Assembly: GCA_026395995.1 (NCBI GenBank)
Contig: JAPLXQ010000010.1
Span: 69,296 to 133,295, forward strand
DNA length: 64,000 nucleotides
DNA from: Candidatus Nomurabacteria bacterium
Lineage (GTDB): Bacteria > Patescibacteriota > Minisyncoccia > Phycocordibacterales > UBA9973
Direction: 5' to 3'
The notes beneath the pieces were generated by a model. It saw nothing but the letters and a program-made list of their open reading frames with translations. It did no database searches and was not told where the DNA came from. A program made the translations under genes and the position numbers. Positions 18,840 through 63,012 of this stretch are shown piece by piece; position 1 is the stretch's first letter; each line of letters starts with the position of its first letter.

Positions 18840-18868
18840 TGATAAAAATTAAATCTTTTGTAAAAATT

Positions 18869-20122: not shown

Positions 20123-20128
20123 AAATTG

Positions 20129-20265: not shown

Positions 20266-21303
20266 ATGGTAGAGACGTTAATATTAAATAGGATAAAATT
20301 TAATAAAAAAGGAATTCAAAAAAAGCTTATTTTGCAAGCTAAAAAGTCTTTAAATTTAACATGGTCTGAATTTGCTAAAGAATTAGGTGTAAGTACTAGA
20401 ACACTTACAAATTGGAGTTGTGAAAAGTTAAATATGTCTTTTGTCTCTGCTGAAAGAATTTCAAAATTAACAGATCTTAAAATTCCTAAAGGCTATTTAG
20501 TTATAAAATGGGATGATCATTTAAGAAAGATTAGTGCATCTGGTGGAAAGAGTAGTTTCAAAAAACATGGAAGAGTTGGTGGTGATGAAATATATAGAAA
20601 AAATAAATGGAAAGAATGGTGGACTAAAAATGGAAAGTATCAAAAAGCTCCTAGTGGTTATAATTCATTGTTAAATATAAAAAAACCAAAACATAATAAA
20701 TTGCTTGCTGAATATGTCGGTATTATGCTAGGTGATGGTGGAATAGCAAAATATTCTACGACAATTACTCTTTCAAATGAAGAAATAAATTATGTTAATT
20801 ATATATCAAGTTTGATAAATAAATTATTCGGTTTGACCCCAAAAGTTTATAAAAAGAAAAACGCTAATGCTGTCGATATAGTAGTTCAAAGAAAAGCTTT
20901 GGTAGATTTTTGCCAAAGTATTGGACTTGTTCAGGGAAATAAAGTTAAACATCAAGTAGATATTCCAAGCTGGGTCAAAGAGAATAAAAGTTTTTCGATA
21001 GAATGTGTTAGGGGATTAATAGATACTGATGGGTGCTTTTACACTAATTCGTATTATGTGAATGGTAAAAAATATTTTTATTTTAAAATTGCTTTTAAAA
21101 ACAGTTCTTTGCCGTTAATTAAATCAGTGGCAGAGATTTTAGCTAGTTTAGGAGTAAAAGTGAGAATAAGTAGAAATTTAAAAGACGTGCGAATTGAAGA
21201 AAAAGAATCAGTTTTAAAATATATAAAGGAAATAGGGACATATAATGATAAACATTTACAAAAAATAATAAAATGGAAAAATAGCAAAAATATGTTAGAG
21301 TAG
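20266..21303 (+). CDS. free-standing LAGLIDADG-family homing-endonuclease-like protein with an N-terminal HTH domain
   Basis: Two LAGLIDADG-type motifs (VGIMLGDGG and RGLIDTDGCF) and an N-terminal HTH (SEFAKELGVSTRTLTNW). Sits between two tRNA genes. Confidence 0.6.
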   Translation: MVETLILNRIKFNKKGIQKKLILQAKKSLNLTWSEFAKELGVSTRTLTNWSCEKLNMSFVSAERISKLTDLKIPKGYLVIKWDDHLRKISASGGKSSFKKHGRVGGDEIYRKNKWKEWWTKNGKYQKAPSGYNSLLNIKKPKHNKLLAEYVGIMLGDGGIAKYSTTITLSNEEINYVNYISSLINKLFGLTPKVYKKKNANAVDIVVQRKALVDFCQSIGLVQGNKVKHQVDIPSWVKENKSFSIECVRGLIDTDGCFYTNSYYVNGKKYFYFKIAFKNSSLPLIKSVAEILASLGVKVRISRNLKDVRIEEKESVLKYIKEIGTYNDKHLQKIIKWKNSKNMLE

Positions 21304-21313
21304 TTGGGTCAAA

Positions 21314-21402
21314 GGAACCGTGTCTGAGCGGTCTAAGGTACCTCTTTGCTAAAGAGGCAGGGGCTTTAAAACCCCTCGCGAGTTCGAATCTCGCCGGTTC
21401 CG
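21314..21402 (+). tRNA. tRNA-Ser(GCU), copy 1
   Basis: Acceptor GGAACCG/CGGTTCC, anticodon arm CCTCT-TTGCTAA-AGAGG, long variable arm, T-loop TTCGAAT, discriminator G. Confidence 0.75.
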
Positions 21403-21423
21403 CAACAAATCTAAACCCAAATC

Positions 21424-23885: not shown

Positions 23886-23974
23886 TGGAACCGTGTCTGA
23901 GCGGTCTAACGTACCTCTTTGCTAAAGAGGCAGGGGCTTTAAAACCCCTCGCGAGTTCGAATCTCGCCGGTTCC
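23886..23974 (+). tRNA. tRNA-Ser(GCU), copy 2 (2 mismatches to copy 1)
   Basis: 89 nt, same cloverleaf as 21314..21402. Differs only at taaggt/taacgt in the D-region. Confidence 0.75.
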
Positions 23975-24012
23975 GCTTGTAATAATTTTATACATTTAAC
24001 GGCAATAATAAT

Positions 24013-45827: not shown

Positions 45828-47876
45828 ATGATAAATTTTATTACATCAGAATTTAGTTTTGAGATTTTGTTTTTACTTTTTAGTGTTGGGGCTATTGGTT
45901 CTCTGTTTTTAAATAAAAACGACAAATTGGCAAACTTCTGGAGTAGTTTCTTTTCAATCAGTAGCTCTATTTGGGGTTTGATAATATCTATCTGTGCTAT
46001 TTCTTTTGGACAAGATCTTCTTTTTTCTGTAGGTCATTCAGTCTTCTCTGTTTTTTCAGTGTCTTTTCATGTTGATAAATTATCTGCTTTTTTTATCTTT
46101 ATAATTTCTTTAATTTCTTTGTTTTGTTCTATTTATGGTATTGGTTATGTAAAGCATTTTTATAAAAAATATAATATTGGTGCTTTAGGGTTCTTTTATA
46201 ATACTTTTATTTTAGGAATGTTACTCGTCGTCTCATCTTCCAATGGAATATTTTTCCTTTTAGCTTGGGAATTGATGTCTCTAGCTTCTTATTTCCTTGT
46301 TGTTTACGATAGAAATGATGAAGAAAATATAAAAGCTGGTTTTTTATATTTTATAATGACTCATGTCGGTACTGCTTTTATTATATTGGCATTATTATTG
46401 TTGTATAAATTTACAGGCTCATTTGATTTTGATATTGTTAAATCAAACATGGGATTAGTTCCTCTATATATTAAAAATCTTGTTTTTATATTCTCAATAA
46501 TTGGTTTTGGCACAAAAGCAGGTATTGTACCTTTCCATGTTTGGCTTCCTAGCGCTCACCCAGCAGCACCTTCACATGTTTCAGCTTTAATGTCTGGGGT
46601 GATGATCAAGACAGGTATTTTTATGATGATCAAAATTTTTCTTGATATTCTTCAGCCAGTACCTGTTTGGTGGGGGCTTACTATTTTAGTTATTGGTTCT
46701 GTCTCTTCTTTGCTTGGAGTTTTATATGCACTTACAGAACATGATTTAAAAAGACTTTTGGCTTATCATAGTATTGAAAATATTGGTATTATTTTGCTTG
46801 GTCTTGGTAGTGCTCTTACTTTTACATCTCTCGGTTTACCAGCATTAGCATTACTTGGTCTTATTGCTGCACTTTTTCACACATTAAACCATGCCACATT
46901 TAAATCATTACTTTTCCTTAGTGCTGGTTCAGTAATTAGTCAAACACACACTAGAAATATGGAAGAATTTGGTGGTCTTATAAAATACATGCCACAGACA
47001 GCCTTCTTCTTTTTAATTGGTTCAATGGCGATATCAGCACTTCCTCCTTTTAATGGATTCTTTAGTGAATGGTTAACTTTTCAATCACTTTTCCAAGGTA
47101 TAATGTCCTTAGATTTTTATTCTAAAGGAATTTTTATTTTTGCAGTTGGTTCATTAGCCTTTACTGGGGGATTAGCTTTAGCTTGTTTCGTAAAAGCATT
47201 TGGTGCTACATTTTTAGCTCGTCCTAGAAGTGAAGAGGTTAAACATGCTAAAGAATCTTCCTTCTCTTTACTTTTTGGTATGGGAGCTTTAGCTTTATTG
47301 TCTTTAGTATTTGGTATTTTTTCTGGATACTTGGGATCTTTTTTTGAAAAGATAGCTAAGAGTTTTACTTTTGCTCAAAATGTTTTTTATCCATCTTTCT
47401 CTACTGACTCTATGTTAAAAGTCGGTAACAGTTTCTCTTCTGTTTCAGCCCCAGCTATTTTTATATTTTTTGCTATTATCTTTTTAATTGTTATTTTTGT
47501 GACTAAGTTTTTGATTAATAGAAATCAAAAAGTAACTATAAATTCTACTTGGGATTGTGGTACAGATTTGACTCCACGTATGGAAATTACTGCGACAGGA
47601 TTTTCTAGATCTATTATTGTTATTTTAAAAGGAATACTTCGACCAAATATTAAAAAAGAAATAGTATATAATGATGCCGGTAGTAAATATCTACCAAAAT
47701 CACGTTTTGTTATTTTGAGTATTAAAGATATATATCAAGCATATTTTTACACACCCTTACATAAAATTACAACTTTCCTTTCTTTGCAGATAAAAAAGAT
47801 ACAAAATGGAAATGTAAATTCTTATATTTTGTATATCTTTTTTGCATTAATAGTCACTTTATTTTTAGCGATATAA
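45828..47876 (+). CDS. NuoL/MrpA/HyfB-like antiporter-type membrane subunit
   Basis: LLAWELMSLASYFLV and VPFHVWLPSAHPAAPSHVSALMSGVMIKTG motifs. 682 aa. Confidence 0.7.
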   Translation: MINFITSEFSFEILFLLFSVGAIGSLFLNKNDKLANFWSSFFSISSSIWGLIISICAISFGQDLLFSVGHSVFSVFSVSFHVDKLSAFFIFIISLISLFCSIYGIGYVKHFYKKYNIGALGFFYNTFILGMLLVVSSSNGIFFLLAWELMSLASYFLVVYDRNDEENIKAGFLYFIMTHVGTAFIILALLLLYKFTGSFDFDIVKSNMGLVPLYIKNLVFIFSIIGFGTKAGIVPFHVWLPSAHPAAPSHVSALMSGVMIKTGIFMMIKIFLDILQPVPVWWGLTILVIGSVSSLLGVLYALTEHDLKRLLAYHSIENIGIILLGLGSALTFTSLGLPALALLGLIAALFHTLNHATFKSLLFLSAGSVISQTHTRNMEEFGGLIKYMPQTAFFFLIGSMAISALPPFNGFFSEWLTFQSLFQGIMSLDFYSKGIFIFAVGSLAFTGGLALACFVKAFGATFLARPRSEEVKHAKESSFSLLFGMGALALLSLVFGIFSGYLGSFFEKIAKSFTFAQNVFYPSFSTDSMLKVGNSFSSVSAPAIFIFFAIIFLIVIFVTKFLINRNQKVTINSTWDCGTDLTPRMEITATGFSRSIIVILKGILRPNIKKEIVYNDAGSKYLPKSRFVILSIKDIYQAYFYTPLHKITTFLSLQIKKIQNGNVNSYILYIFFALIVTLFLAI

Positions 47877-47878
47877 AT

Positions 47879-48805
47879 ATGAATATTTTAATTTGGATAA
47901 TTCAAATAGTTTTTATACCAATAATGTCACCATTGTGTGTCGGTATTATTAGAAAAATAAAAGCCAAACTTCAAAATAGAAAAGGGGCTAGTATTTTTCA
48001 ACCATATAATGATTTATGGAAACTCTTTAATAAAGATGAAGTTATCAGTAAAGATGCTTCTTGGGTTTTTAGATATGCCCCTTTTGTTATTTTTTCAGTG
48101 ACTATCTTTGTCGGTATGAGTGTTCCAATTTTTATGTCTTTTGTAAACAACACTTTTACTAGTGACATATTGGTAATTATTTATATGCTTGCATTGGGAA
48201 CATTTTTCTTGGCTCTTTCTGGTTTAGATACAGGTGGAGCTTTTGGTGGTTTTGGTTCAAGTCGTGAAATGACTATGTCTGCTTTAGCAGAAGGTGGTTT
48301 TATCTTCTCTCTTTTAACAATTTCTTTCATAGCTGGTACTACCAATCTATTGGCTATTTCTAATGTTGGAATTCTTCAACATGGACATTTGCTACTTTCA
48401 TCTATATTGGCTTTTATATCATTCTTCATAATATTATTAGCAGAAAATACAAGATATCCTTTTGATAATCCGTCTACTCACTTGGAATTAACTATGATTC
48501 ATGAAGCTATGATTTTAGAATATTCTGGAAAAAGATTAGCTCTTATTGAATGGGCATCTTCAAATAAACTTTTAATTTTTATTTCTTTGGGCTCCAGTTT
48601 GTTTTTCCCTTGGGGTATAGCTGGGGCACTTAGTTTAAGTGCGTTACTTTTCGGTTTATTTATTTTTTGTTTAAAGGTATTTATTTTTTGTTTAGCAATA
48701 GCTGTATTGGAATCAAGTATAGCAAAATTGCGATTCTTTAAATTACCTGATTTATTGTTGATAGCCTTTATTCTTAATGTGATAGCAATTATTTTAATTT
48801 TTTAA
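47879..48805 (+). CDS. NuoH/HyfC/EchB-like membrane subunit
   Basis: ENTRYPFDNPSTHLELTMIHEAMILEYSG conserved loop. Confidence 0.7.
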   Translation: MNILIWIIQIVFIPIMSPLCVGIIRKIKAKLQNRKGASIFQPYNDLWKLFNKDEVISKDASWVFRYAPFVIFSVTIFVGMSVPIFMSFVNNTFTSDILVIIYMLALGTFFLALSGLDTGGAFGGFGSSREMTMSALAEGGFIFSLLTISFIAGTTNLLAISNVGILQHGHLLLSSILAFISFFIILLAENTRYPFDNPSTHLELTMIHEAMILEYSGKRLALIEWASSNKLLIFISLGSSLFFPWGIAGALSLSALLFGLFIFCLKVFIFCLAIAVLESSIAKLRFFKLPDLLLIAFILNVIAIILIF

Positions 48806-48807
48806 TT

Positions 48808-49455
48808 ATGAATATTTTATTTTATACAATTTTGCCGGAGATAGTTTTATTAAGTATTATTTCTTTACATTTAGTAAAGAAAAATAGTGAGATGGTCTTT
48901 CTTTATGGTTTTCAATCAATCGCAATTGTTTTAATGTTGTTTTGTTCGTTTTTAACGACAGGTAAACTTTCTTTGTTATTGGTTACGGTTGTTGTATTAC
49001 TTGCCAAGGTAATATTAGCACCATTATTTTTTAATAAATTAATTTTAAAACACAAGCTGGTTTTTTCTGTAAAAAAGTATGTTAATACATCTTTTAGTTT
49101 GGTAATTATAGCTATTTTAATTATCACAGCTTATTCAGATAAATTTACTTCATTAACAAATATTATTCCAGCAAATCACGCATCGCTATCTCTAGCATTT
49201 TCTGCAATGTTATTGTCTTTGTTTTTGATTGTGAATAGTAGGGGAGCATTGTCTCAAATTGTAGCCATTCTTTCTTTGGAAAATAGTATTGTCGCTTTTG
49301 CTGTTTTTGCAGAACTAGAACAATCTGCTGGTTTGCAAATAGGTATAGTTTTTGATATCTTTGTTTGGATGATAGTAGCAACAATGTTTGTTTCAATGAT
49401 TCAAAAGCATTTCGGGTCGATTGACGTTACTTCAATGAAAAACCTAAAAGATTAA
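48808..49455 (+). CDS. HyfE-like small membrane subunit
   Basis: About 215-aa polytopic protein in the HyfE position. Confidence 0.45.
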   Translation: MNILFYTILPEIVLLSIISLHLVKKNSEMVFLYGFQSIAIVLMLFCSFLTTGKLSLLLVTVVVLLAKVILAPLFFNKLILKHKLVFSVKKYVNTSFSLVIIAILIITAYSDKFTSLTNIIPANHASLSLAFSAMLLSLFLIVNSRGALSQIVAILSLENSIVAFAVFAELEQSAGLQIGIVFDIFVWMIVATMFVSMIQKHFGSIDVTSMKNLKD

Positions 49456-49459
49456 ATTT

Positions 49460-50902
49460 ATGGAATTATTATTTATTTTTACATTTTTATTACTTGCTTC
49501 ACTTATTGGCCTCTTTACTAAAAAGAGATTATTTATTGAGTTTGTTTCTGTTTTTGCTTCTATTTTTGCTTTGTTTGGGTCAATCAACGTTGCTATGAAG
49601 GTAGTAGCTCTTGGTTCTTATAGTCCATTTAGTTTTTTATATGTTGAATCTTTTGGAGCAGTTTTACTACTTATTATTTCTTTGATTGGTTTGTCAACGA
49701 CTGTTTATTCTATACAATATCTTCGTCAAGAAAGTGCTAAAAATATTATTGGACCTGCTAGAGTTAGACAGTATTTTGTCTTGTTGAATTTATTTATTCT
49801 TTTTATGTTTTTAGCAACAACAGTAAATAGTCCAATTTTTAGTTGGATTTTTATTGAGGCTACAACATTATCGACTGTTTTTCTTATTAGTTTTTATAAT
49901 AAATCATCTTCAGTTGAGGCTGCTTGGAAATATCTAGTAGTGAACTCTGTTGGATTATTATTTGGTTTCTTTGGAACACTTTTATATTTTACTTCTTTAC
50001 ATTCCGTTGATAATGGTTCAATCGTTAGTTGGAATGGTCTTTTGAATGGCGCAACAAGCCTCGATCCTGTTATTGCCAAAATAGCTTTCATATTCGTCTT
50101 GATTGGTTATGGTGCTAAAGTGGGTCTTGCACCTATGCATACATGGAAGCCAGATGCTTATAGTAAGGCCCCAACACCGCTAGGAGCATTGTTTTCAGGT
50201 GCTTTGTTGCCGGTGGCTTTTGTAACTATTTTAAAATTTAAAACAATAACTGATACTGTTGTTGGTTTGTCATTTAGTCAAAATCTACTTATTTTATTTG
50301 GAACACTATCTGTTTTTATCTCAGCCTTTATTATTTTTTCTTCTAGAAATTATAAAAGACTATTAGCTTATTCTGGTATAGAAAATGCTGGAATTATGGC
50401 TCTCGGTTTTGGTTTTGGTGGGTTGGGTATTTTTGCTGGAACCTTACATATGATTTATCATTCTTTGATTAAATCTGCTCTTTTCTTTTGCTCAGGTAAT
50501 TTTTTATTGAAATATGGTTCAGCAAAAATAAAAAATATTAGAGGTGCTATAAATGTCCTTCCTTTCACTAGTGTTGTTTTTGTTGTTGGATTTTTGGCCT
50601 TGATTGGTATGCCACCATTTGGTGTATTTTTTACAAAGTTAACAATTCTTTCTGCTGGAATAAAAAATCATCAATTGTTTTCAATAGTTCTTATTTTCCT
50701 AGTCTCTCTTTTGTTTATTGGTTTTTTGAAACATGTGACTGCTATGGTTTTTGGAAAAAAACCAGAGGACATGTCTATTAAAAAAGAGAGTGTTTGGTTG
50801 ATCATTCCACCATTAGTATTGATTGGTGTTGTTATTTGTTTAAGTTTTTATATACCACCATTTTTATATACCTTATTTAATAATATAGTTTTACATTACT
50901 AA
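49460..50902 (+). CDS. NuoN/NuoM/HyfF-like antiporter-type membrane subunit
   Basis: GLAPMHTWKPDAYSKAPTPLGALFSGALL motif. Confidence 0.7.
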   Translation: MELLFIFTFLLLASLIGLFTKKRLFIEFVSVFASIFALFGSINVAMKVVALGSYSPFSFLYVESFGAVLLLIISLIGLSTTVYSIQYLRQESAKNIIGPARVRQYFVLLNLFILFMFLATTVNSPIFSWIFIEATTLSTVFLISFYNKSSSVEAAWKYLVVNSVGLLFGFFGTLLYFTSLHSVDNGSIVSWNGLLNGATSLDPVIAKIAFIFVLIGYGAKVGLAPMHTWKPDAYSKAPTPLGALFSGALLPVAFVTILKFKTITDTVVGLSFSQNLLILFGTLSVFISAFIIFSSRNYKRLLAYSGIENAGIMALGFGFGGLGIFAGTLHMIYHSLIKSALFFCSGNFLLKYGSAKIKNIRGAINVLPFTSVVFVVGFLALIGMPPFGVFFTKLTILSAGIKNHQLFSIVLIFLVSLLFIGFLKHVTAMVFGKKPEDMSIKKESVWLIIPPLVLIGVVICLSFYIPPFLYTLFNNIVLHY

Positions 50903-50903
50903 T

Positions 50904-52478
50904 ATGAATAAAGAAATAATAAAAAATTATATACCAGAAAATACAAAAGTAGATTTTGTTGGAAATATTGCTCTTGTAAAAGTTGAAGCAGTAAATATTT
51001 TAGAAATTGCTAATGATTTATATAATCATAAAAATCTTCCGCTTAAACTCGTTACAGCGACAGATGAAAGGTTTGAAAATGGATGTTTTAAAATTTGGTA
51101 TATTTTTGGAATTCCAAAAGAAAATATTTTTATAGCCTTATTTATTGAACTTAAGAATATTGAGGAATTCCCATCAATAGTCTCAGTTGTTTTTGAGGCT
51201 GGTAACTATGAAAGAAAAATAAAAACTTTTTTCGGTCTTACTCCAGCAGGGGCTTTTGATACAAGGCCAATAATTTTACATGAAAATTGGCCAATTGATG
51301 TTTTTCCACTTCGAAAAGATTTTAATTTACAAACAAAAGTAAAACAATCAACTGGAACATATGAATTTCAAAGAGTTGATGGTGAGGGTATTTATGAGAT
51401 TCCTGTCGGTCCAATTCATGCTGGTATTATAGAACCTGGTCATTTTCGATTTAGTGTCGCTGGAGAAGAAATAATGCTCTTAGAAGCAAGACTTGGTTTT
51501 GTGCATAAAAGTATAGAAAAAATATTTGAATCAGAAATATCAATAGATGAAAAAATAAAACTTTCTGAAAAAATTTCAGGAGATAGTTCTTTCTCTTATT
51601 CTGCTGCTTTTTGTCGATCGATAGAAAATTTAGCTGGAATTGAAGTTTCTAAAAGAGCTGAGTATTTGCGTGCTATTTATTCTGAATTAGAAAGATTAAC
51701 AAATCATTTTGGCGATGTTGGTGCTATGATGCTAGATACAGGGTTTAATTTTGGTGGAGCAAACGGTTCTCGTTTACGTGAGATAGTTATGCAACTAAAT
51801 GAAAGACTTACTGGTAGTAGGTTTTTGCGTGGAGTAAATGTCGTAGGTGGTGTGACTAAAGATATAGATTTAAATGAAAAACAAATTTTATTAAACAACC
51901 TTGAAAAGATATTTAAAGATTTTGAAGAAGTTATTGAAGTAGTAGAAAGTAAAATTTCTTTATTGAATCGTTTACGAGGAACTGGAGCTATTACTCATAC
52001 TATTGCTAAAGATTTTGGAGTGCTGGGTGTACCTGCTAGGGCTGTAGGCATTGAAAATGATACACGTTTAGATTTTCCATATAGTGTGTATCAAGAATTA
52101 GATTTTAGTAAAGCTGAAGTTCAAACTACAGGAGATGTATATGCTCGTTTCTATGTTCGAATAAAAGAAATTCGTACTTCATTTAACCTTATTGAAAAAG
52201 CCCTAATCAATTTACCAGAAGGAAAAATAAATTCATCATTAGATAAAATAGTTTTAAAGAAGAATTCTGTAGTTATTACCCTTGTGGAGGGGTGGAGAGG
52301 GGAAATAGCATATTTCATTACTACCGATTTAAATGGAAATATTAGTAGAGTTTATCCTCGTGATCCATCTTTTCTAAACTGGTCAGCCGTCGGCTGTGCT
52401 GGTCCTGGCAATGTCGTTCCAGATTTCCCACTCATAAACAAAAGCTTCAATCTTTCTTATACAGGAAATGATTTGTAA
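50904..52478 (+). CDS. fused NuoC-NuoD / hydrogenase large-subunit homologue with NiFe-binding Cys motifs replaced
   Basis: PVGPIHAGIIEPGHFRF and IENLAGIEVSKRAEYLRAIYSELERL are conserved. The L1 motif RxCGxCxxxH is ISGDSSFSY. The C-terminal DPCxxCxxH-equivalent is NKSFNLSYTGNDL. Confidence 0.7.
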   Translation: MNKEIIKNYIPENTKVDFVGNIALVKVEAVNILEIANDLYNHKNLPLKLVTATDERFENGCFKIWYIFGIPKENIFIALFIELKNIEEFPSIVSVVFEAGNYERKIKTFFGLTPAGAFDTRPIILHENWPIDVFPLRKDFNLQTKVKQSTGTYEFQRVDGEGIYEIPVGPIHAGIIEPGHFRFSVAGEEIMLLEARLGFVHKSIEKIFESEISIDEKIKLSEKISGDSSFSYSAAFCRSIENLAGIEVSKRAEYLRAIYSELERLTNHFGDVGAMMLDTGFNFGGANGSRLREIVMQLNERLTGSRFLRGVNVVGGVTKDIDLNEKQILLNNLEKIFKDFEEVIEVVESKISLLNRLRGTGAITHTIAKDFGVLGVPARAVGIENDTRLDFPYSVYQELDFSKAEVQTTGDVYARFYVRIKEIRTSFNLIEKALINLPEGKINSSLDKIVLKKNSVVITLVEGWRGEIAYFITTDLNGNISRVYPRDPSFLNWSAVGCAGPGNVVPDFPLINKSFNLSYTGNDL

Positions 52479-53776: not shown

Positions 53777-56770
53777 ATGTCAGACATATTTACTGAAAAA
53801 TATAAAGCTTTAAATAAAGCCCAGAAAGAAGCTGTGGAATTTATAGATGGACCAGTGATGGTCGTCGCAGGGCCGGGAACAGGTAAAACTCAAGTCCTCG
53901 CTCTTCGCATAGGACATATTCTAAAAGAAACTGATACAAAAGCAGACAGTATTCTTTGTCTTACTTTTACCAATTCTGGAGTGAAAGCAATGAAGAAAAG
54001 ACTCGAAGAATATATAGGTACCGATGTAAATAATGTAAAAATTTCTACTTTCCATGCTTTTGCTATCAAACTCGTCGAAGATAATTATGAACTTTTGGAT
54101 TTTAAAAGAATGCCAAAATTGCTCGAAGATGACGAGGCTGTTTTTCTCGCAGATGAGATAATGCAAAACAATACTTGGGAATATTTGCGTCCTCGTTCAA
54201 ATCCGACGATGTATTTCAATGATTTGAAAAGTCTCATTTCAGTTTTAAAGAGAGAGCGCCTAACACCTGAAGAATTTTTGAAAGAAGTTGAACATGATAT
54301 TAAGTTTTTTAAAAATGATCCAGATAGTATTTCTACTCGTGGAGAAAGTAAGGGAAAATTAAAAAAAGAAATAGAGAAAAAAATAGAATCACTAGAACGC
54401 ACTCGTGAAGTTGTGGAATTTTATCGTATTTATGAAGAGAGAAAAAGGGAAGAGAATCTGATGGATTATGATGATGTTTTAGAATATGCAGTAAAACTCG
54501 TAGAAGAATATGAAGATGTTCGCGCTAGTGTTTACGAAGATTATTTATATGTATTAGTGGATGAACATCAGGATTCGAGTGGTGTGCAAAATAATTTCTT
54601 GAAAGCTGTTTGGAAAGATACAGAGAAGCCAAATATTTTCGTAGTGGGGGATGACAGGCAATTGATTTATGCTTTTTCTGGTGCAAAGCTTTCATATTTT
54701 GAAGAATTTGCACACTTCTTTGGTAAAGCGAAATTAATAATTCTCACAGAGAATTATCGTTCCACTACACCGATTCTCGCTCTCGCTGATAATTTACTCA
54801 GTAGTTCTATTACGAAAGAAAAATTAAATTCCAATACAAAGGGTGAAGAAAAAATATTACTGAATGAATATAGTTATCCGAGAGATGAGATAATCGGTGC
54901 AGGTTTGTATTTCAAAAATAAAATAGCAGAATCAACTGATAGAGATAAAATGAAACCAGAAGACTGTGCGATATTAGTGCCGAAGAATTTCCATGTTCGC
55001 ACAGCTATACAAATACTGGGAGATATGGGTTTGCCTGTTTCGACTGGTAAAAGTATGTCACTTTTTAATGTAAAAGAGACATATAGCTTTTTGCGAGTTT
55101 TAAATATTATCACTGAGCCTTTTAATTCTGTATTCCTGTCAGAAAGTTTACTCGATAAGACTAGCGGAGTAAGTCCTTTTGAAGCACATAAATTTTTGAA
55201 AACTTTAAAGCCAGATAGGATGACTATCGATGATTTGATAAACAATGGTGGTGGAGATGGGCTTTTTGCGGGGGAGAATGATATTTCAAAATGGGGTAAG
55301 GTTTTAAAATCTTGGACAGAATTAGCGAATGACAAACTCTCTATTATTGTGAGTAAAATAGGTAATGAACTTCTGATAGATAATTCCAAGACTCATACTG
55401 AGCTTTTGAAAAATGTCGAAGTGGTTCGTAGCTTTATTCATACTGCGATGATTTTTGAGCAAAAACATAACAACGCAAGTTTGAAAGATTTTATAGAATA
55501 TTTTAAGAGATTAGAAACTTATGGTAATCATATTACACTAGCTACTTTTGAATCTGATAATGGTATCCAAGTAATGACACTTCATAAGTCAAAAGGTTTG
55601 GAATATAAAAATGTCTGGATTGCACATATGAATGAAGAAGTTTTAATGTCTGAAAAGAGAAATGGTTTTACGCTTCCTGAAAAAGTAAAAGAGCACATAC
55701 ACGAGCGTGATATTGAAAATGCGAAGAGGGAACTCTATGTAGCCATAACCCGTGCGAAGGAGAATTGTATTATTTCACATGCAAATGAAAGCTATAATGG
55801 GGCGCAAATGGAACTCGCTCAAATAATTCGTGAATTACCTGGTACACATTTTGTTAAAAAAGAAAAAGAAGAAACAGAAAAAGAAATAATGGCAGGCGAG
55901 AGTGGAGTAAAAATATATACAAATATCGTTGAGAAAAAAGAAGGGAAGATCATTGATGAAATTAAAGATTTTGCACGAGAAAATTATAAAAATACGAAAG
56001 TTACAGTCACACTTCTCAATAACTTTTTTGAATGTCCTTGGAAATGGTATTTTAGAAATTTTTTGAAATTACCTGAAGTAAAAGGTACATCACTTGCTCT
56101 CGGTTCTGCTGTTCACTCTACTATAGAATTTATTTTGAAAAATAAAGAATTGCCGAGTGATAAAGTAATTAAAGAAAAAATACAAGAATCTTTAAATAAA
56201 GAAGGAGTTCAAGATGAGAAAGAGATTAAAACTTTAGCGAAAGATGCAGAAAAAGCTATTAAAAATTGGATTGATAATTATTATGCTAATTTAGCAAAAG
56301 ATTACAGTTCAGAGCGCTCCGTGCAATTCACCGATCCAAAATATCCTGATTTGCTTATGTATGGAAAGCTCGATTTGACAGAGAGAGAAAATGGAAATAT
56401 TACAATTACTGATTTTAAAACTGGTAAACCAAAAACAAAAAGTGAAATTGAAAAGATTGACGAAGAGGGTAGACTCTCTGGCTATATGCGCCAGCTCGCT
56501 ATGTATTCATATCTCGTGGCGGGAGCAGAACGTGGAAAGAGTGTAGAAAGTTCACGACTTCTTTTTCTCGAAGCAAAAGAAGATGATAAGAATGCTTTGT
56601 ATTCTATACACATAGACGAAGAAAAAATTGATTTATTAAAGCGTGACATTTCAGACTATGTTAAAAATCTCGAAACTGGAGAATGGACAAATTTAGAATG
56701 CCACTACAAACCTTGGGGAAGTAGTAAGGATGAGTGTGAATATTGCGCACTCGCTAAAAAGATTATTTAG
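53777..56770 (+). CDS. UvrD/PcrA-type SF1 helicase fused to a C-terminal Cas4/AddB-like PD-(D/E)xK nuclease with Cys4 cluster
   Basis: Walker A AGPGTGKTQVL and DExQD (VLVDEHQDSS). Nuclease core DLTERENG ... ITDFKTGKP ... RQLAMYSY. Cys ligands in FECPWKWY ... CHYKPWGSSKDECEYC. Confidence 0.75.
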   Translation: MSDIFTEKYKALNKAQKEAVEFIDGPVMVVAGPGTGKTQVLALRIGHILKETDTKADSILCLTFTNSGVKAMKKRLEEYIGTDVNNVKISTFHAFAIKLVEDNYELLDFKRMPKLLEDDEAVFLADEIMQNNTWEYLRPRSNPTMYFNDLKSLISVLKRERLTPEEFLKEVEHDIKFFKNDPDSISTRGESKGKLKKEIEKKIESLERTREVVEFYRIYEERKREENLMDYDDVLEYAVKLVEEYEDVRASVYEDYLYVLVDEHQDSSGVQNNFLKAVWKDTEKPNIFVVGDDRQLIYAFSGAKLSYFEEFAHFFGKAKLIILTENYRSTTPILALADNLLSSSITKEKLNSNTKGEEKILLNEYSYPRDEIIGAGLYFKNKIAESTDRDKMKPEDCAILVPKNFHVRTAIQILGDMGLPVSTGKSMSLFNVKETYSFLRVLNIITEPFNSVFLSESLLDKTSGVSPFEAHKFLKTLKPDRMTIDDLINNGGGDGLFAGENDISKWGKVLKSWTELANDKLSIIVSKIGNELLIDNSKTHTELLKNVEVVRSFIHTAMIFEQKHNNASLKDFIEYFKRLETYGNHITLATFESDNGIQVMTLHKSKGLEYKNVWIAHMNEEVLMSEKRNGFTLPEKVKEHIHERDIENAKRELYVAITRAKENCIISHANESYNGAQMELAQIIRELPGTHFVKKEKEETEKEIMAGESGVKIYTNIVEKKEGKIIDEIKDFARENYKNTKVTVTLLNNFFECPWKWYFRNFLKLPEVKGTSLALGSAVHSTIEFILKNKELPSDKVIKEKIQESLNKEGVQDEKEIKTLAKDAEKAIKNWIDNYYANLAKDYSSERSVQFTDPKYPDLLMYGKLDLTERENGNITITDFKTGKPKTKSEIEKIDEEGRLSGYMRQLAMYSYLVAGAERGKSVESSRLLFLEAKEDDKNALYSIHIDEEKIDLLKRDISDYVKNLETGEWTNLECHYKPWGSSKDECEYCALAKKII

Positions 56771-57060: not shown

Positions 57061-57426
57061 GTTTCAATATTGTAGAGTTTTTGTTTAACCAAATCGGTTA
57101 ACTTTGTTCGGTAAACTAAACAAAAGTTTGTATACAGCCGGACTTTGTCTTAGTATGATTCCCAACGATGTATAGATCGTTACTAGGATTGACGCAGTTC
57201 ACATTGAAAGTAATACATCTTCAAAGTACCACTATTTAAAATAAAAATCAACTAGAAAAGACTAGGTCCGTTATCCATCCAGCCGAGAATAAGCCCTAAA
57301 AGGGTGAAAGTTATAATGAGTATTATTAAAAGATTGATATTCTTTTTCATAATTTAAGTATACTATAAAGTCTTGCAAATAAAGCCTTTTGCCGTTAATA
57401 TCATATGTATGTATAAAAAGGCTAAT

Positions 57427-58440
57427 ATGAAAAATAAAGAAGAGCTTTTGGCTGATTTAGCAAAAGAGAATTTTAAACGCCGAACTCTTTCTTTTTATAA
57501 ATATGTCAAAATAGAAAATCCAAAAGAAATGCGTGATATGCTTTTTGATAAACTTTCAGAGCTTAAATGTCTGGGTAGAATCTATGTCGCACATGAAGGT
57601 ATCAATGCGCAGATGAATGTACCTGAACACAATTGGGATGCTTTTAATTCTTTCTTACAAAATATTCCAGAATTCACAGGTGTACCATATAAATTCGCAG
57701 TAGAAGAAAAAGGTAGTAGTAGTTTTATAAAATTAATTATAAAAGTGCGAGAAAAAATTGTTGCTGATGGACTCGATGATAGTACTTTTGACCCGGCAAA
57801 TACAGGTGAATATGCTCTCGCAGAAGAAGTGAATGAAATGATAGATCGTGGTACGACAGTTATCGATATGCGAAATATTTACGAAGCAGCCATTGGTCAC
57901 TTTGAAAATGCAAAGATAATGAATGTCGATACTTTCCGAGAACAACTTCAAAAAGTGCAAGACATGTTCAAAGATAAAAAAGATGAAGAAGTTTTGCTAT
58001 ATTGTACTGGAGGAATTCGTTGTGAAAAAGCTTCTGCGTGGATGAAACATAATGGTTTTAAAAATGTGAAACATATAAAAGGTGGAATTATCGATTATGC
58101 TCACAGAGTAAAAGAATTAGGTTTACCAAATAAATTTAAAGGCAAGAATTTTGTCTTTGATGAGAGAATGGGGGAGAGAGTTGGCGATGAGATTATTTCT
58201 GCTTGTCAGATTTGTGAAAAGGAAAAGTCGGACGAATATATACACTGTAAAAATCTTTCTTGTCATATGTTATTCATATCTTGTAAAAAGTGTGAGAAAA
58301 ATTTAGATGGTTACTGTAGTCGCATTTGCCAAATTTGTGATAAATTTCCTAAAAAAGTAAATCAACTTTTTATCAATCGAAATCAACAAAAGCATTCAAA
58401 TCAATACAAGAAGAATTACAAGAGAACAAATGTGGTATAA
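57427..58440 (+). CDS. trhO: rhodanese-domain tRNA uridine(34) hydroxylase TrhO/YceA-like
   Basis: LSFYKY N-terminus, VAHEGINAQM, rhodanese loop LYCTGGIRCEKASAWMKHNGF and C-terminal Cys-rich tail. Confidence 0.65.
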   Translation: MKNKEELLADLAKENFKRRTLSFYKYVKIENPKEMRDMLFDKLSELKCLGRIYVAHEGINAQMNVPEHNWDAFNSFLQNIPEFTGVPYKFAVEEKGSSSFIKLIIKVREKIVADGLDDSTFDPANTGEYALAEEVNEMIDRGTTVIDMRNIYEAAIGHFENAKIMNVDTFREQLQKVQDMFKDKKDEEVLLYCTGGIRCEKASAWMKHNGFKNVKHIKGGIIDYAHRVKELGLPNKFKGKNFVFDERMGERVGDEIISACQICEKEKSDEYIHCKNLSCHMLFISCKKCEKNLDGYCSRICQICDKFPKKVNQLFINRNQQKHSNQYKKNYKRTNVV

Positions 58441-58472: not shown

Positions 58473-58709
58473 ATGAAACACGAAATAACTACAAAATACA
58501 GCGCTGTTCATGTTTTTTACGAAGGAGGTAGTTCTACTTTAGATGAATATAGTGTTCCTTGGTTTCAAAAACTACAATCTTCAGAAGTAAAAACATTTTG
58601 TGACTCTGCATACTCAAATGGTAAGGCAGATCTTGAAGATAATTATAGCAACAATCTTTCGCTTGTTTACAATGGTGATAGTACTTATACATTAAAATTA
58701 AGAGATTAA
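58473..58709 (+). CDS. small hypothetical protein
   Basis: 78-aa ORF. Confidence 0.3.
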   Translation: MKHEITTKYSAVHVFYEGGSSTLDEYSVPWFQKLQSSEVKTFCDSAYSNGKADLEDNYSNNLSLVYNGDSTYTLKLRD

Positions 58710-58721
58710 TAAAATAAAAAT

Positions 58722-59915
58722 ATGACAAGTTTAGAAAAAGCAAAAATAGAAATCCCAAAAGAAAATCCAGATTTACCCATGCAATTAAAATTTGATGTTT
58801 CTTCATCTGAAACAATAGAAAAACTTTTGTCCGTAAAAGATTTAACTTTACCTACAGAAAATGGAGAAAGTAGAAATATTATCGGTAAAGTTTTTGACCA
58901 AGTAATTAAAAAATTAGAAGAACATAATTTTTCTGATATAAATGTTGTGCGAGGTAATCCTATTGTTCTAGCTAGTGATAACTTTGATAGTCTTTTATTT
59001 ACTCCAGGAAATCCTGGAAGGTCTGCGACTTATACTAGATATACTGACGAAGATCACGTTCTCCGTACTCATACCTCTGCACTTATTCCACAAACATTTA
59101 AAAATTTCAAAAAGGAAATTGATCGTTCTACTTTTGTTTTACCTGGGCTCGTATACAGAAGGGATGTTATCGATCCTAGGCATTTAGATGTTTTTCATCA
59201 GATAGATGTTTGGACTTTACAGGATAATAGTAAGTACGGAAAAGTAAATCGAGAAAATTTATTAGAATTAGCTAGAACTGTTTTCGAAGCTGCTTGTCCT
59301 GATGCTGAGATGATAGTCTATGAAGCGAAGCATCCATATACAGTTGATGGTATTGAAGTCTATGCAAAAGTAAATGGTGTAGAAATAGAAGTTTTTGAAG
59401 CAGGTCTCGCTCATCCAGAAGTTTTGAAAAATTGTGGTATTGATCCTGAAAATTATTCCGGTCTCGCTCTCGGTATGGGAGTGGAGAGATTAATAATGGC
59501 TAGAAAGAATTTACCAGACATTCGCCTCATACGTTCTACTGATCCGAGAATTATCAAACAAATGACTGATATGGAACCATATAAAAATGTTTCTAATCAG
59601 CCAGCTATTTCTCGTGACATGTCTTATATTGTGAATAAAAATGATTCTGAAGAAGATCTTTGCGAAGATATCAGAAATGTTTTCGGTGAACATGCTGATC
59701 TACTCGAAGAAGTAAAAATATTAGAGAGAACTCCTTTTGATAAATTGCATCCAGTAGCAAAAGAAAAACTCGGAGCAGTCGAAGGCCAAGATAATGTTTT
59801 GGTACGTATTATTCTTCGTCACCCTGATAAAACTTTAACTAAAAAAGAAGCCGCTGATTTGTATGAAATGGCTTATCCAAAACTTCACAAGGGAAGTACT
59901 CAAGGATATAAGTAG
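58722..59915 (+). CDS. monomeric (mitochondrial-type) phenylalanyl-tRNA synthetase-like protein: PheS class-II core fused to an FDX-ACB anticodon-binding domain
   Basis: VLRTHTSALIPQ, VLPGLVYRRDVIDPRHLDVFHQID, motif 3 GLALGMGVERLIMARKNLPDIRL, then a C-terminal FDX-ACB-like region (PAISRDMSYIV ... ILRHPDKTLTKKE). 397 aa. No pheT adjacent. Confidence 0.65.
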   Translation: MTSLEKAKIEIPKENPDLPMQLKFDVSSSETIEKLLSVKDLTLPTENGESRNIIGKVFDQVIKKLEEHNFSDINVVRGNPIVLASDNFDSLLFTPGNPGRSATYTRYTDEDHVLRTHTSALIPQTFKNFKKEIDRSTFVLPGLVYRRDVIDPRHLDVFHQIDVWTLQDNSKYGKVNRENLLELARTVFEAACPDAEMIVYEAKHPYTVDGIEVYAKVNGVEIEVFEAGLAHPEVLKNCGIDPENYSGLALGMGVERLIMARKNLPDIRLIRSTDPRIIKQMTDMEPYKNVSNQPAISRDMSYIVNKNDSEEDLCEDIRNVFGEHADLLEEVKILERTPFDKLHPVAKEKLGAVEGQDNVLVRIILRHPDKTLTKKEAADLYEMAYPKLHKGSTQGYK

Positions 59916-59934: not shown

Positions 59935-59994
59935 AAAAAATCCCCTAAAATAGGGGATTTTTTAGTTTTGTTTTAATAAAAAAAATGCTATAAT
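59935..59994 (+). promoter_or_regulatory. terminator (AAAAATCCCCTAaaaTAGGGGATTTTTT) followed by extended -10 TGCTATAAT at 59986..59994 for gyrB
   Basis: Hairpin with T-run, then the promoter 11 bp upstream of the gyrB ATG. Confidence 0.55.
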
Positions 59995-60004
59995 GGGTGT
60001 ATAT

Positions 60005-62047
60005 ATGGCAAAAGAAAAAGAACAAAAATATGGGGCAGAACAAATATCTGTCCTAGAGGGGCTTGAGCCGGTTCGCCGCCGTCCTGGTATGTATATCGGT
60101 ACTACTGGTATCGATGGTTTGCACCACCTCGTATGGGAAATATTCGACAACTCTCGTGACGAAGCCATGGGAGGATATTGTGATGAGATTGAAGTAGTCG
60201 TTTTACCTGGAGACATTATCCGTGTGACAGATAATGGTCGCGGAATTCCTACAGACATTCACCCTAAAACAAAAGTTTCTGCACTTGAGACAGTTATGAC
60301 TACACTCCATGCTGGAGGTAAATTCGGTGGAGAAAATTCTGGTTACAAAGTTTCCGGAGGATTGCACGGAGTGGGTGCTTCTGTGGTGAACGCTCTTTCT
60401 CTTTATACAAAAGCAGAAGTACATCACGATGGTGGAAAATTCATGCAAGAATATACCCAAGGCAAGAAAAAAGCTGCTGTTAAAAAAGTCGGTTCTTCAA
60501 AAGCTCATGGTACAGTCATCACTTTCCAGCCAGACCCAGAAATTTTTAAAGAAGGAGTTATTTTTGATTATGATACGATTGTAAATCGTTTTCGTCAGCA
60601 AGCATATCTTGTAAAAAAACTTCGCATTCGTGTGATCGATGCTAGAAAATATGAAGGAAAAATAAATACTGATGATGTGGTTTATTTTAGTGAACTTAAT
60701 TTGGAAGTTCCATCTACTACCTTTTATTTTGAAGGAGGATTGGTGTCTCTCGTAAAATATACAACACGTCTACAAAAATCTTTATCTAATAAAATCTTTT
60801 ATGTTGAAAAAGACCAAGACAATGTCGGAGTTGAAATAGCGCTTCGCTATGTCGATGATATGACAGATAAGATTATTCCTTTCGCAAACAATATTTATAC
60901 ACCAGAAGGTGGTACACATGTGACAGGTTTCAAAACTGCTCTCACAAGACTTTTGAATACTTACAGTAAAAAAAATAATGTCTTAAAAGAAACTGAAGGT
61001 GGTTTTACTGGTGAAGATGTTCTCGAAGGTTTAGTCGTCGTAGTCTCAGTCAAGCTTCCAGAAATTCAATTTGAAGGACAAACCAAAGCTAAGCTTGGAA
61101 GTATGGAAGCTCAGGGAGCGGTAGCGACAGTCTTTGGAGAAGCCTTCTCTGCTTTCTTGGAAGAGAACCCAGATGAAGCTAAAGTCATCATGAATAAGGC
61201 TATTTTGGCCCTCAAGGCACGTAAAGCAGCCAAAGCAGCCAAAGACTCAATCCTTCGTAAAGGAGCCCTAGAAGGTATGACTTTGCCTGGAAAGCTTGCA
61301 GACTGTCAAAGTAAATCAGCGGCTGAATCTGAAATATTCATCGTGGAGGGAGATTCCGCTGGAGGTACAGCTAAAATGGGGCGTGATAGAAAGACTCAAG
61401 CTATCTTGCCACTTCGTGGAAAGATTTTGAATGTCGAGCGTGCACGTCTCGATCGTATGCTAGGATCTGAACAAATAAAAAACCTAGTCATTGCGATGGG
61501 TACATCTATTGGTGATACTTTTGATCTTGAAAAAATCCGTTATCATAAAATAATTATTGCGACTGATGCCGACGTGGACGGAGCCCACATTACGACCTTG
61601 CTCTTAACTCTATTCTACAGATATTTCCGCCAAGTCATTGATGCTGGATATTTATATATTGCTCAACCTCCACTTTATAAAATTAAAAAAGGCAAACAAA
61701 TTTCTTACGCTTATACAGATGAAGAAAGAATTAAATTAGCAGGAGAGGGAGATGTAGAAATTGAAAACTTGGAAGATGGTGTCGTCGAAGAAGTAGAAGA
61801 GACAGAAGAAGACGTAAAAAAGAAAGCCAACAAAGTTCATATTCAAAGATATAAAGGTCTCGGAGAAATGAATGCCGAAGAACTTTGGGAGACTACTATG
61901 GATCCAGCTCACCGTATGATTAAAAAAGTAAATGTCGATGATGCTGAAGAAGCCAATAAAATCTTTGATATTTTGATGGGCTCAGAAGTGCCACCACGTA
62001 AATCTTTTATTCAATCAAATGCCAAGCTGGCAGAGATTGATATCTAG
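60005..62047 (+). CDS. gyrB: DNA gyrase subunit B (ParE not excluded)
   Basis: GHKL ATPase motifs, EGDSAGG, PLRGKILNVE, ATDADVDGAHI Toprim, C-terminal tail. Confidence 0.8.
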   Translation: MAKEKEQKYGAEQISVLEGLEPVRRRPGMYIGTTGIDGLHHLVWEIFDNSRDEAMGGYCDEIEVVVLPGDIIRVTDNGRGIPTDIHPKTKVSALETVMTTLHAGGKFGGENSGYKVSGGLHGVGASVVNALSLYTKAEVHHDGGKFMQEYTQGKKKAAVKKVGSSKAHGTVITFQPDPEIFKEGVIFDYDTIVNRFRQQAYLVKKLRIRVIDARKYEGKINTDDVVYFSELNLEVPSTTFYFEGGLVSLVKYTTRLQKSLSNKIFYVEKDQDNVGVEIALRYVDDMTDKIIPFANNIYTPEGGTHVTGFKTALTRLLNTYSKKNNVLKETEGGFTGEDVLEGLVVVVSVKLPEIQFEGQTKAKLGSMEAQGAVATVFGEAFSAFLEENPDEAKVIMNKAILALKARKAAKAAKDSILRKGALEGMTLPGKLADCQSKSAAESEIFIVEGDSAGGTAKMGRDRKTQAILPLRGKILNVERARLDRMLGSEQIKNLVIAMGTSIGDTFDLEKIRYHKIIIATDADVDGAHITTLLLTLFYRYFRQVIDAGYLYIAQPPLYKIKKGKQISYAYTDEERIKLAGEGDVEIENLEDGVVEEVEETEEDVKKKANKVHIQRYKGLGEMNAEELWETTMDPAHRMIKKVNVDDAEEANKIFDILMGSEVPPRKSFIQSNAKLAEIDI

Positions 62048-62436: not shown

Positions 62437-63012
62437 TTAAACAAGAAAATTAACTATTTTTATTATAGGTTCTCCTATTAATTTCTTTTGAAATGGACCA
62501 TAATGAAAAGTCGCTTCAATTTTTTTACCATCTAAAAGTATTGGCAGGAATAGCTTATCAGCAGGCATCATTTTTTTTAATGGTAAGTCGTGAATATGGA
62601 ATAATGTCGGTTTTAGCATCTCTTTAGTTTCTTTGATTTTACCTTTCCATTTTTCTGTAATATAAAAATGAACTCGGCATACAAAAGTAGTATTATCACT
62701 TTTTGTATTATGAAAATCAATAATAGCTACTTTTACCAAATTCTTCTGTAAGACTTTTACCTTACCTTCTTCTTTGGCTTCTCTGGTGGCTGCTTTTTTT
62801 TGAGTTTCTCCTTTTTTAATTCCACCTCCTAAGCCGTTCCAGCAACCTTTGCCAATTTTGTCAGCTTTAATGCTGAGCCAAATTTTATTTGTTTTTTTGA
62901 CCTTTAAATAAAGAACTGTGGCTTCTTTTAAAGTTTTCTCTTTTCTTTTCTTAAGTACCTTTTTCATGATCTTTATATTTTTAAATAAGTATTTTCTTTG
63001 CTGATTATACAA
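62437..63012 (-). CDS. NUDIX hydrolase
   Basis: Nudix box GGGIKKGETQKKAATREAKEEGKV. Confidence 0.6.
   Translation of the reverse strand: MYNQQRKYLFKNIKIMKKVLKKRKEKTLKEATVLYLKVKKTNKIWLSIKADKIGKGCWNGLGGGIKKGETQKKAATREAKEEGKVKVLQKNLVKVAIIDFHNTKSDNTTFVCRVHFYITEKWKGKIKETKEMLKPTLFHIHDLPLKKMMPADKLFLPILLDGKKIEATFHYGPFQKKLIGEPIIKIVNFLV

Follow-up and report, generated by a model that had tools for sequence, protein, structure and literature searches.

Among the aminoacyl-tRNA synthetases, phenylalanyl-tRNA synthetase (PheRS) alone is, to our knowledge, a heterotetramer built from two kinds of subunit in nearly all bacteria; its one-chain form is considered to be organellar. Besides the bacterial PheS/PheT pair and the mitochondrial enzyme (FARS2), the described relatives include an NCBIfam family, NF051887, entitled 'PheS-related mystery ligase SrmL', which is uncharacterised; our search found no published work on the SrmL family or on a bacterial monomeric PheRS. 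Here we report the analysis of an SrmL gene (srmL) located in a 64-kb stretch of DNA, hereafter the window, which belongs to a 287-kb contig of a Candidatus Nomurabacteria metagenome-assembled genome (MAG) of the Patescibacteria or Candidate Phyla Radiation (CPR). In the window and in several related genomes, srmL occupies the position at which other members of the group carry the pheS-pheT operon (pheST). We are slightly inclined to read this as an in-situ displacement of pheS-pheT by srmL, with SrmL acting as the PheRS of the cell. The loci compared are numbered L001-L159, and the homologous proteins compared bear P-numbers (P0124, P0190, etc.).

srmL in the position of pheS-pheT

The genes surrounding srmL in the window are the following:

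53777..56770, + strand: UvrD/PD-(D/E)XK helicase-nuclease, left flank of the slot (tblastn, 49-71% identity; Pfam labels)
57373..58440, + strand: TrhO, tRNA U34 hydroxylase of the rhodanese family (NCBIfam NF001133, 244.7 bits)
58473..58709, + strand: open reading frame (ORF) of 78 aa that ends 12 nt before srmL, without a family match and conserved only in the closest relatives
58722..59915, + strand: srmL-family gene, 397 aa from ATG to stop, encoding a monomeric PheRS-like class-II ligase
59993..62047, + strand: gyrB, right flank of the slot (blastn, 60003-62047 against 11829-13921 of L152)
62437..63012, - strand: NUDIX hydrolase (Pfam), in the same position and orientation in L152 and L003
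63068..63991, - strand: 3' part of thrS, toward the window end; belongs to a gene order, gyrB to thrS(-), that is conserved

In related Paceibacteria, pheS (approximately 235 aa) and pheT (approximately 600 aa) were found directly 5' of gyrB in six lineages (L058, L084, L139-146, L147/148, L150/151 and L152), while a further locus, L149, shows the order helicase-pheS-pheT on a contig that stops before gyrB. The typical gene order of the pheST loci is TerC-helicase/nuclease-...-pheS-pheT-gyrB-...-thrS(-)-L32-NusB/NUDIX-RNase III-SMC. The gene located 5' of gyrB is srmL in the window and in L001, L003, L087, L088, L121, L130, L132, L133 and L159. In L012 and L014 srmL lies 4-6 kb upstream of gyrB, with surface-protein genes inserted in L012; between srmL and gyrB of the latter locus only large surface-protein genes and no pheT remnants were detected. 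The srmL-gyrB position is kept even where SrmL is only 52-54% identical to the window protein.

The correspondence can be followed gene by gene in L152, where the genes run helicase-TrhO-small ORF-pheS-pheT-gyrB-NUDIX(-)-thrS(-); the gene order of the window is the same, with srmL in the place of pheS-pheT. The helicase-nuclease at 53777..56770 has its orthologue 5' of pheS in related genomes, TrhO lies where L152 has its own TrhO-family gene ahead of pheS, and DNA homology to L152 restarts at the gyrB start codon. The window and L152 products are 80% (GyrB), 70% (ThrRS), 66% (LigA) and 50% (helicase) identical. In L159, the SrmL of which is 97% identical to that of the window, the right-hand synteny runs on through L32, NusB/NUDIX, RNase III and SMC. 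The window and L159 share both flanks with the pheST loci L152, L147, L139 and L084, so that srmL and pheST stand at one orthologous locus.

The two states do not follow the relationships of their neighbours. The flanks of L003, an srmL locus, are nearest to those of the pheST loci L139 and L084 (helicase 78%, GyrB 83-85%) and are less close to those of the window (helicase 71%, GyrB 82%). In a GyrB tree, the split between srmL-bearing and pheST-bearing genomes receives 0% bootstrap and the states are interleaved. The SrmL proteins of lineages in which the helicases share only 47-71% identity are themselves 86-91% identical. In most pairs the SrmL identity equals or exceeds that of GyrB and, relative to GyrB, it is similar to that of PheS. 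Positionally, srmL replaces pheST in this group, and the distribution of the two is interleaved. Furthermore, neither pheS nor pheT was found in the srmL flanks of any of the 67 window-clade loci (0/67), and among these 67 srmL loci and 8 pheST loci none carried both. Since srmL is found repeatedly in exactly the place of an essential operon, and the operon is missing from an otherwise invariant position, displacement is the simplest reading of these data.

An alternative is that SrmL is an accessory paralogue with another specificity, i.e. a non-Phe substrate, another tRNA or RNA, or a non-tRNA acceptor, that pheST lies elsewhere in the genome and that the position next to gyrB reflects an insertion into a variable region. 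We regard this explanation as possible rather than probable. The region does take insertions: a PemK and a PQ-loop gene lie between pheS and pheT in L084 (8483-11821), PaaX_M and methyltransferase genes are inserted in L139 and L150, and giant surface proteins are encoded in L012. In addition, pheST loci with GyrB 86-90% identical carry PheS alleles of 56-94% and PheT alleles of 66-76% identity (L084, L139, L147, L150 and L152). The region upstream of gyrB is, in its behaviour, a recombination and insertion hot spot. An accessory role, however, would require pheST to leave a position that is invariant in six of six lineages whenever srmL arrives, and to do so in several interleaved lineages, none of the loci counted above having kept both. 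It would also require a sub-1-Mb genome to carry PheST along with one or two SrmL copies.

Some further observations concern the genes of the slot. The TrhO ORF as listed begins at a TTG approximately 38 codons before the start of the family match, and its product is only 32-34% identical to those of the same-position genes in L004 and L152, the neighbouring genes being much closer. ThrRS is discordant as well: the L003 enzyme is 83% identical to that of the window and 48% identical to that of L139, although helicase (78%) and GyrB (83%) pair L003 with L139. This suggests either two ThrRS types or an exchange at thrS too.

Protein architecture and family assignment

The original prediction described a 397-aa ORF with the motifs LRTHTS, GLVYRRDVIDPRHLDVFHQID and GMGVERLIMARKNLPDIRL, which was borne out by translation of the + strand. 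The start codon is backed by an N-terminus conserved across >100 homologues, and a GenBank entry (MCX6755382.1, locus tag NT068_02485) is 100% identical to the window protein. Three parts can be distinguished:

58722..58862, + strand: N-terminal extension, aa 1-47 (alignments; the Pfam and NCBIfam matches start at aa 40-48)
58863..59564, + strand: class-II catalytic core, tRNA-synt_2d, aa 48-281 (Pfam, E 9e-37)
59592..59885, + strand: C-terminal FDX-ACB-like ferredoxin-fold domain, aa 291-388 (Pfam, 29.1 bits)

The N-terminal extension, which only the window clade and P0124, the SrmL nearest to it, possess, stands in the place of the coiled-coil arm of bacterial PheS. The core aligns to PheS alpha of E. 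coli and A. baumannii. The FDX-ACB match of the C-terminal domain (E 1.4e-6) is slightly under the Pfam gathering score of 31.1; in a profile alignment the domain aligns to the anticodon-binding domain of human mitochondrial PheRS (3CMQ). An AlphaFold2 model built from 19 homologues has a mean predicted local distance difference test (pLDDT) value of 81, and its C-terminal domain has the order beta-alpha-beta-beta-alpha. In a Foldseek search, entries of human mitochondrial PheRS gave the best full-length matches (380 aligned columns with 3cmq at E 1e-21), whereas bacterial PheS alpha chains match the core only. The domain search, the 3CMQ alignment and Foldseek thus agree with the predicted architecture, a PheS-like core joined to an FDX-ACB-like domain as in organellar monomeric PheRS. 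The accompanying claim that no pheT is adjacent also stands, the neighbours being TrhO and the 78-aa ORF upstream and gyrB downstream. Phmmer searches of all six-frame ORFs with the whole protein and with its C-terminal domain detected no other PheS-like or PheT-like gene in the 64-kb window.

The label 'mitochondrial-type PheRS', on the other hand, did not survive. The window protein does not pass TIGR00469 (pheS_mito), scoring 138.4 bits against a cut-off of 258.35, nor TIGR00468 (pheS), with 107.6 bits against 237.45, while on NF051887, where the cut-off is 300, it reaches 380.5 bits and spans positions 3-349 of the 349 in the profile. True mitochondrial PheRS score 343-361 bits on TIGR00469 and 234-249 bits on the SrmL model, on which local CPR PheS scores 152 bits; mitochondrial PheRS thus scores above CPR PheS on the SrmL model, which indicates that SrmL is specifically related to the one-chain PheRS lineage. 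The window protein has all the signatures derived here for SrmL, namely H-P-Y-T, G-L-A-x-G and D-x-W, and its clade shows no variation in them; the same holds for a signature of the C-terminal-domain insertion, Y/F-[DE]-x-L-P..A..[RK]-L-G...Q-x-N. In a neighbour-joining tree with 200 bootstraps, the SrmL family including the window protein is monophyletic at 100% bootstrap, with the window clade as a sub-branch at 98.5%, and just 1.5% of the replicates group the rest of SrmL to the exclusion of the window clade. Judging from its sequence, the window protein is a new member of the already catalogued SrmL family, in which the ring-stacking pocket residues and the anticodon triad of PheRS are absent (see below). 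Passing the SrmL model, failing both PheRS equivalogs and nesting within SrmL are also what would be expected of an accessory paralogue.

Another explanation that can be weighed here is a recent local fusion, in which the resident pheS would have been joined to the 3' end of pheT (B8 domain) after deletion of most of pheT. The gene lies at the exact pheS-pheT site and its domain order is the one that such a deletion would give; a local fusion would also parallel the presumed origin of mitochondrial PheRS. However, the window protein is 30-37% identical to the PheS of neighbouring lineages and approximately 22% identical to the C-terminus of their PheT, while its full-length identity to proteobacterial and actinobacterial SrmLs is 39-44%. 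Furthermore, the SrmL clade is separate from Paceibacteria PheS at 100% bootstrap in the neighbour-joining tree, and mitochondrial PheRS outscores local PheS on the SrmL model, as noted above. Given the phylogeny and the low identities, any fusion must be ancient and not local; a local origin was therefore rejected and hardly any credence can be given to it.

A search of 1.84 billion representative proteins returned full-length relatives forming a broad family of 360-420 aa with 30-44% identity, high-GC sequences included. One of them, WP_108125014.1 of the cultivated gammaproteobacterium Saccharospirillum mangrovi, is named SrmL by a source and is encoded by a stand-alone gene on a 3.7-Mb chromosome. 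Others are found on plasmids. An Azotobacter chroococcum plasmid carries an SrmL gene (L157, NZ_CP066311.1 46090-47202) amid insertion sequence elements and HNH endonuclease and toxin-antitoxin genes. On a Glutamicibacter nicotianae plasmid the gene (L156, NZ_CP142605.1 49734-50852) lies directly 3' of a Cmx/CmrA chloramphenicol exporter and near tet(33), and a Corynebacterium diphtheriae plasmid has a truncated copy with erm(X) on one side and tet(65) on the other (L158, OV884290.1 11588-12220). The idea that SrmL is part of a resistance transposon was considered and rejected, the Glutamicibacter gene being found on one plasmid only at the DNA level. With two cases, one of them truncated, the linkage to resistance regions is anecdotal.

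Catalytic site and amino acid pocket

Residues were compared with E. coli PheS, the numbering of which was transferred via an alignment of the window protein; the register of this alignment was checked by the known specificity residues T251 and A294, which align properly. Three regions of the core are relevant:

59142..59219, + strand: motif 2 region PGLVYRRDVIDPRHLDVFHQIDVWTL, aa 141-166, with Arg146, Phe158 and Gln160 retained
59331..59342, + strand: H204-P-Y206-T207, which replaces F-P-F-T of PheRS (E. coli F248, F250, T251) and is invariant in the family alignment
59460..59492, + strand: motif 3, G247-L-A249-L-G-M-G-V-E-R256-L, corresponding to canonical G-[FW]-A-F-G, with Leu in the place of both flanking aromatics

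R146, F158 and R256 align to the class-II motif residues of E. coli PheS and are invariant in the clade, and the HTS motif is retained. The canonical motif-2 E-G-L is changed to D162-V163-W164; the E. coli residues aligned to Phe158, Gln160 and D162-V163-W164 are F206, Q208, E210, G211 and L212. In H-P-Y-T the ring-stacking walls of the pocket are altered and Thr207 at the pocket bottom is retained; Ala249 (E. coli A294) and the motif-3 Arg256 are retained as well. The adenine-stacking Phe158 ('FHQ', E. coli F206) is kept by the window clade, whereas most other SrmLs have Pro at this position. The pocket changes are common to the whole SrmL family, and their invariance in the window clade points to selection for a defined ligand.

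These residues bear on a further possibility, namely that SrmL is a catalytically inactive pseudo-synthetase with an RNA-binding or regulatory role. The altered pocket and anticodon face would be compatible with such a role, as would the loss of the adenine-stacking Phe in many other SrmLs. However, Arg146, Phe158, Gln160, Arg256 and HTS are invariant in the window clade, and so are the changed pocket residues themselves. With catalytic and pocket residues both invariant, we consider an inactive protein very unlikely.

The C-terminal domain and anticodon reading

Structures of the M. tuberculosis PheRS-tRNA complex show that an Asp, a stacking Phe/Tyr and an Arg read G34, and this interface is kept in the human mitochondrial enzyme (PMC8136816). 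D-x-[FY], [KR]-x-S and, at the C-terminus, [VL]-R recur in all the genuine PheRS anticodon-binding domains that we sampled, namely those of the human and two further mitochondrial enzymes, of two CPR PheT and of the FP[FY]T monomers. The corresponding segment of the window protein is different:

59724..59795, + strand: remodelled anticodon-reading face, with E335-R-T337 in the place of PheRS D-x-[FY], followed by the insertion PFDKLHPVAKEKLGAVEGQ-D-N, aa 338-358

Every SrmL has [ES]-x-T, then a conserved insertion of approximately 18 residues and a C-terminal G-Y; the window protein ends in G-Y-K where PheRS has the conserved C-terminal Arg. As the outcome that would overturn it, the original prediction had named a standard pheST pair elsewhere together with a truncated PheS paralogue whose C-terminal domain is not FDX-ACB. 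Only half of this outcome was seen: the domain is FDX-ACB-like, but its anticodon-reading face is changed, and no pheST pair was detected in the 64-kb window.

Displacement or accessory gene

If srmL displaced pheST, it would have replaced the operon in the slot helicase-(trhO)-X-gyrB-(nudix)-thrS of this Nomurabacteria lineage, either in situ or by cassette exchange through recombination in the conserved flanks. SrmL would then use ATP to activate Phe, or an aromatic amino acid very similar to it, and would charge tRNA-Phe with it, acting as a monomer without a beta subunit and without an editing domain. Substrate binding would involve a rebuilt aromatic pocket, with His204, Tyr206, Trp164, Leu248 and Leu250 above a retained Thr207/Ala249 floor, and tRNA binding a rebuilt reading surface. 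That the substrate is Phe and the tRNA is tRNA-Phe is what we infer. The displacement reading is consistent with the housekeeping-level conservation of the gene and with the retained ATP-binding residues. By analogy, it is also consistent with the behaviour of SrmL genes as mobile single-gene units (on plasmids and twice in resistance regions), which is what may be expected of a self-sufficient replacement synthetase. For an accessory paralogue, it is awkward that the adenine-stacking Phe is kept in the window clade and that this clade evolves at the slow pace of a housekeeping synthetase.

A number of observations weigh against displacement. All four aromatic walls of the Phe pocket are changed (F248H, F250Y, F293L and F295L in E. 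coli numbering), the alpha-amino-binding Glu is an Asp in the window protein, and the G34-reading Asp/aromatic/Arg triad is replaced. As neither the Phe pocket nor the G34 triad has the features of PheRS, any handling of Phe and tRNA-Phe would be non-canonical; a family-wide altered pocket and an anticodon face lacking the triad would follow readily from an accessory role. No recurrent tRNA gene was found beside srmL among the compared loci. In L097, L099, L114 and L115 two SrmL paralogues lie side by side, and in L011, L094, L095 and L124 a second SrmL is located approximately 6 kb from the window-clade gene, which speaks for an accessory role. Furthermore, SrmL is almost certainly accessory in the Saccharospirillum, Azotobacter and Glutamicibacter hosts, where it is encoded on a 3.7-Mb gammaproteobacterial chromosome or on plasmids and where ordinary pheST presumably coexists with it, and the window clade nests within that same family.

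The distribution of PheT on whole contigs has to be read with care. Among the matches listed, no contig was shared between approximately 190 PheT and 120 SrmL clusters; the srmL scaffolds compared include some of 800, 704, 593 and 457 kb, and the pheT contigs some of 672 and 378 kb. However, a PheT of the window MAG could have been missed by this list. According to our calibration (PheT identity approximately 0.98 x GyrB identity minus 16), it would be approximately 58% identical to the query, just under the 60% at which the best 120 matches end, which also weighs against displacement; with the predicted identity below this floor, the tally was not counted as evidence of absence. Likewise, no PheT was found in the protein accession range of the window MAG among the matches listed. 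None of the PheT-bearing assemblies found (GCA_026395915.1, GCA_000990895.1, GCA_964638985.1, GCA_020851595.1, GCA_037143815.1, GCA_005795785.1 and GCA_031291825.1) bears srmL. In Hainich H43, pheST and srmL contigs occur in the same assembly with a coverage of 16x and 7x, respectively, and thus derive from different populations. The window covers only 64 kb of the 287-kb contig, a further point against displacement, which would require that no pheST lie elsewhere in the genome.

Taking both sides together, displacement of pheS-pheT by srmL is the reading that we mildly favour. The original prediction had raised the case that this gene may be the only PheRS of its genome, to which the shared position of srmL and pheS-pheT lends unanticipated support. 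On the broader proposal, that this Nomurabacteria clade has dropped the (alpha-beta)2 PheRS for a single-chain SrmL which reads neither the phenyl ring nor G34 canonically, and that srmL and pheST are interchangeable cassettes, we are evenly divided.

The second SrmL copies deserve a brief description. In L011 (3504-9894; the same as L081, L094 and L095) the second SrmL is a typical one of 370 aa with 'PHQMDVW'. It adjoins a divergent cluster of pyridoxal phosphate (PLP)-decarboxylase-like, kinase-like, GFO/IDH/MocA and RibA-like genes, and an Aminotran_4 gene follows the window-clade copy. The NF051887 scores are 372 bits for the orthologue and 388 bits for the paralogue of L011. A much slower evolution of the window-clade copy relative to the second paralogue was considered and found to be only marginally true, the two copies evolving at similar rates.

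If displacement is true, it would provide the first function for SrmL, as an alternative, mobile and editing-free PheRS, and this would be the first bacterial lineage to depend on a one-polypeptide PheRS alone. SrmL would also represent a bacterial sister group bearing on the origin of mitochondrial PheRS and a comparator for FARS2 evolution. A free-replicating bacterium would then be able to do without both PheRS editing and the canonical reading of G34, and the protein would offer a compact orthogonal PheRS scaffold. Moreover, pheS and pheT are universal phylogenomic and completeness markers, and srmL-only MAGs would therefore be scored as incomplete. If pheST is present elsewhere, srmL would simply be another member of an uncharacterised known family. 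What goes beyond the ordinary is the alternation of srmL and pheS-pheT at one orthologous locus in a CPR lineage.

Other features of the window

Several other genes of the window were noted. A class-I synthetase of 1176 aa (7332-10862, + strand) is IleRS-like (tRNA-synt_1, Anticodon_1, DUF5915) and contains, in the middle of its catalytic domain, a complete His_Phos_1 domain of the phosphoglycerate-mutase type (PGM; aa 510-680, E 1e-35). A protein of 475 aa (16791-18218, + strand) combines an N-terminal, PGM-like His_Phos_1 domain with a pyruvate kinase barrel and is encoded beside enolase (18839-20122); it looks like a fused lower-glycolysis enzyme. A complex-I/Mrp-like membrane module is located at 45828-52478 (+ strand), with two Proton_antipo_M genes, a NuoH-like gene and a fused 30-kDa and 49-kDa subunit.

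A group of serine tRNA genes was also noted. ARAGORN predicted a tRNA-Ser(ACT) at 20128-20215 (- strand), which is unusual for bacteria, and made the same call in a related MAG (L002, 12817-12902). A LAGLIDADG_3 ORF (20266-21303) lies between this gene and a tRNA-Ser(GCT) (21314-21403), and a second tRNA-Ser(GCT) is found 2.5 kb further (23887-23976), within a predicted ORF.

Comparison with known systems

With the other SrmLs the window protein shares H-P-Y-T, G-L-A-x-G, D-x-W and the C-terminal insertion. It differs from them in that its clade is confined to Paceibacteria, evolves slowly, keeps the Phe of FHQ, has the N-terminal extension and occupies the pheS-pheT slot. The plasmid-borne SrmL genes, two of them inside multidrug-resistance regions, may be likened to MupA/IleRS2. 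The latter are plasmid-borne replacement synthetases, and a self-sufficient alternative synthetase with a changed pocket is a classic route to inhibitor resistance. We know of no PheRS inhibitor, resistance phenotype or activity that has been connected with SrmL.

Compared with bacterial PheS/PheT (TIGR00468, TIGR00472 and the short CPR forms), the core is homologous, with approximately 30-37% identity, and the chromosomal position is the same. The window protein, however, is one chain and lacks the B3/B4 editing domain, the B5 domain and the alpha coiled coil.

Like the window protein, mitochondrial PheRS (FARS2; 3CMQ, 3TUP) is a single chain of approximately 400 aa in which a linker connects the PheS-type core to the ferredoxin-fold domain, and it has no editing domain. 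The length of the motif-2 loop of the window protein is mitochondrial-like, too (YRRD-ID--H). On the other hand, the window protein has HPY for FPF and G-L-A-L-G for G-W-A-F-G, and it lacks D-x-F and the C-terminal Arg, with an insertion of approximately 18 aa on that face.

The one-chain architecture is also found in bacterial monomers of the FP[FY]T type (P0190/P0277 and P0251). Unlike the window protein, these keep FP[FY]T, G-W-A-F-G, D-x-Y and the C-terminal Arg, and P0190 passes TIGR00469 with 264 bits against a cut-off of 258. P0277, the cluster representative of which is P0190, has 390 aa; within a compact bacterial operon (L155, 489-3121), 3 nt separate its gene from that of a CCA-adding enzyme downstream, and P0277 is possibly a genuine bacterial one-chain PheRS. 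By these sequence criteria, it is the P0190-type proteins, and not the window protein, that are the true bacterial counterparts of the mitochondrial enzyme.

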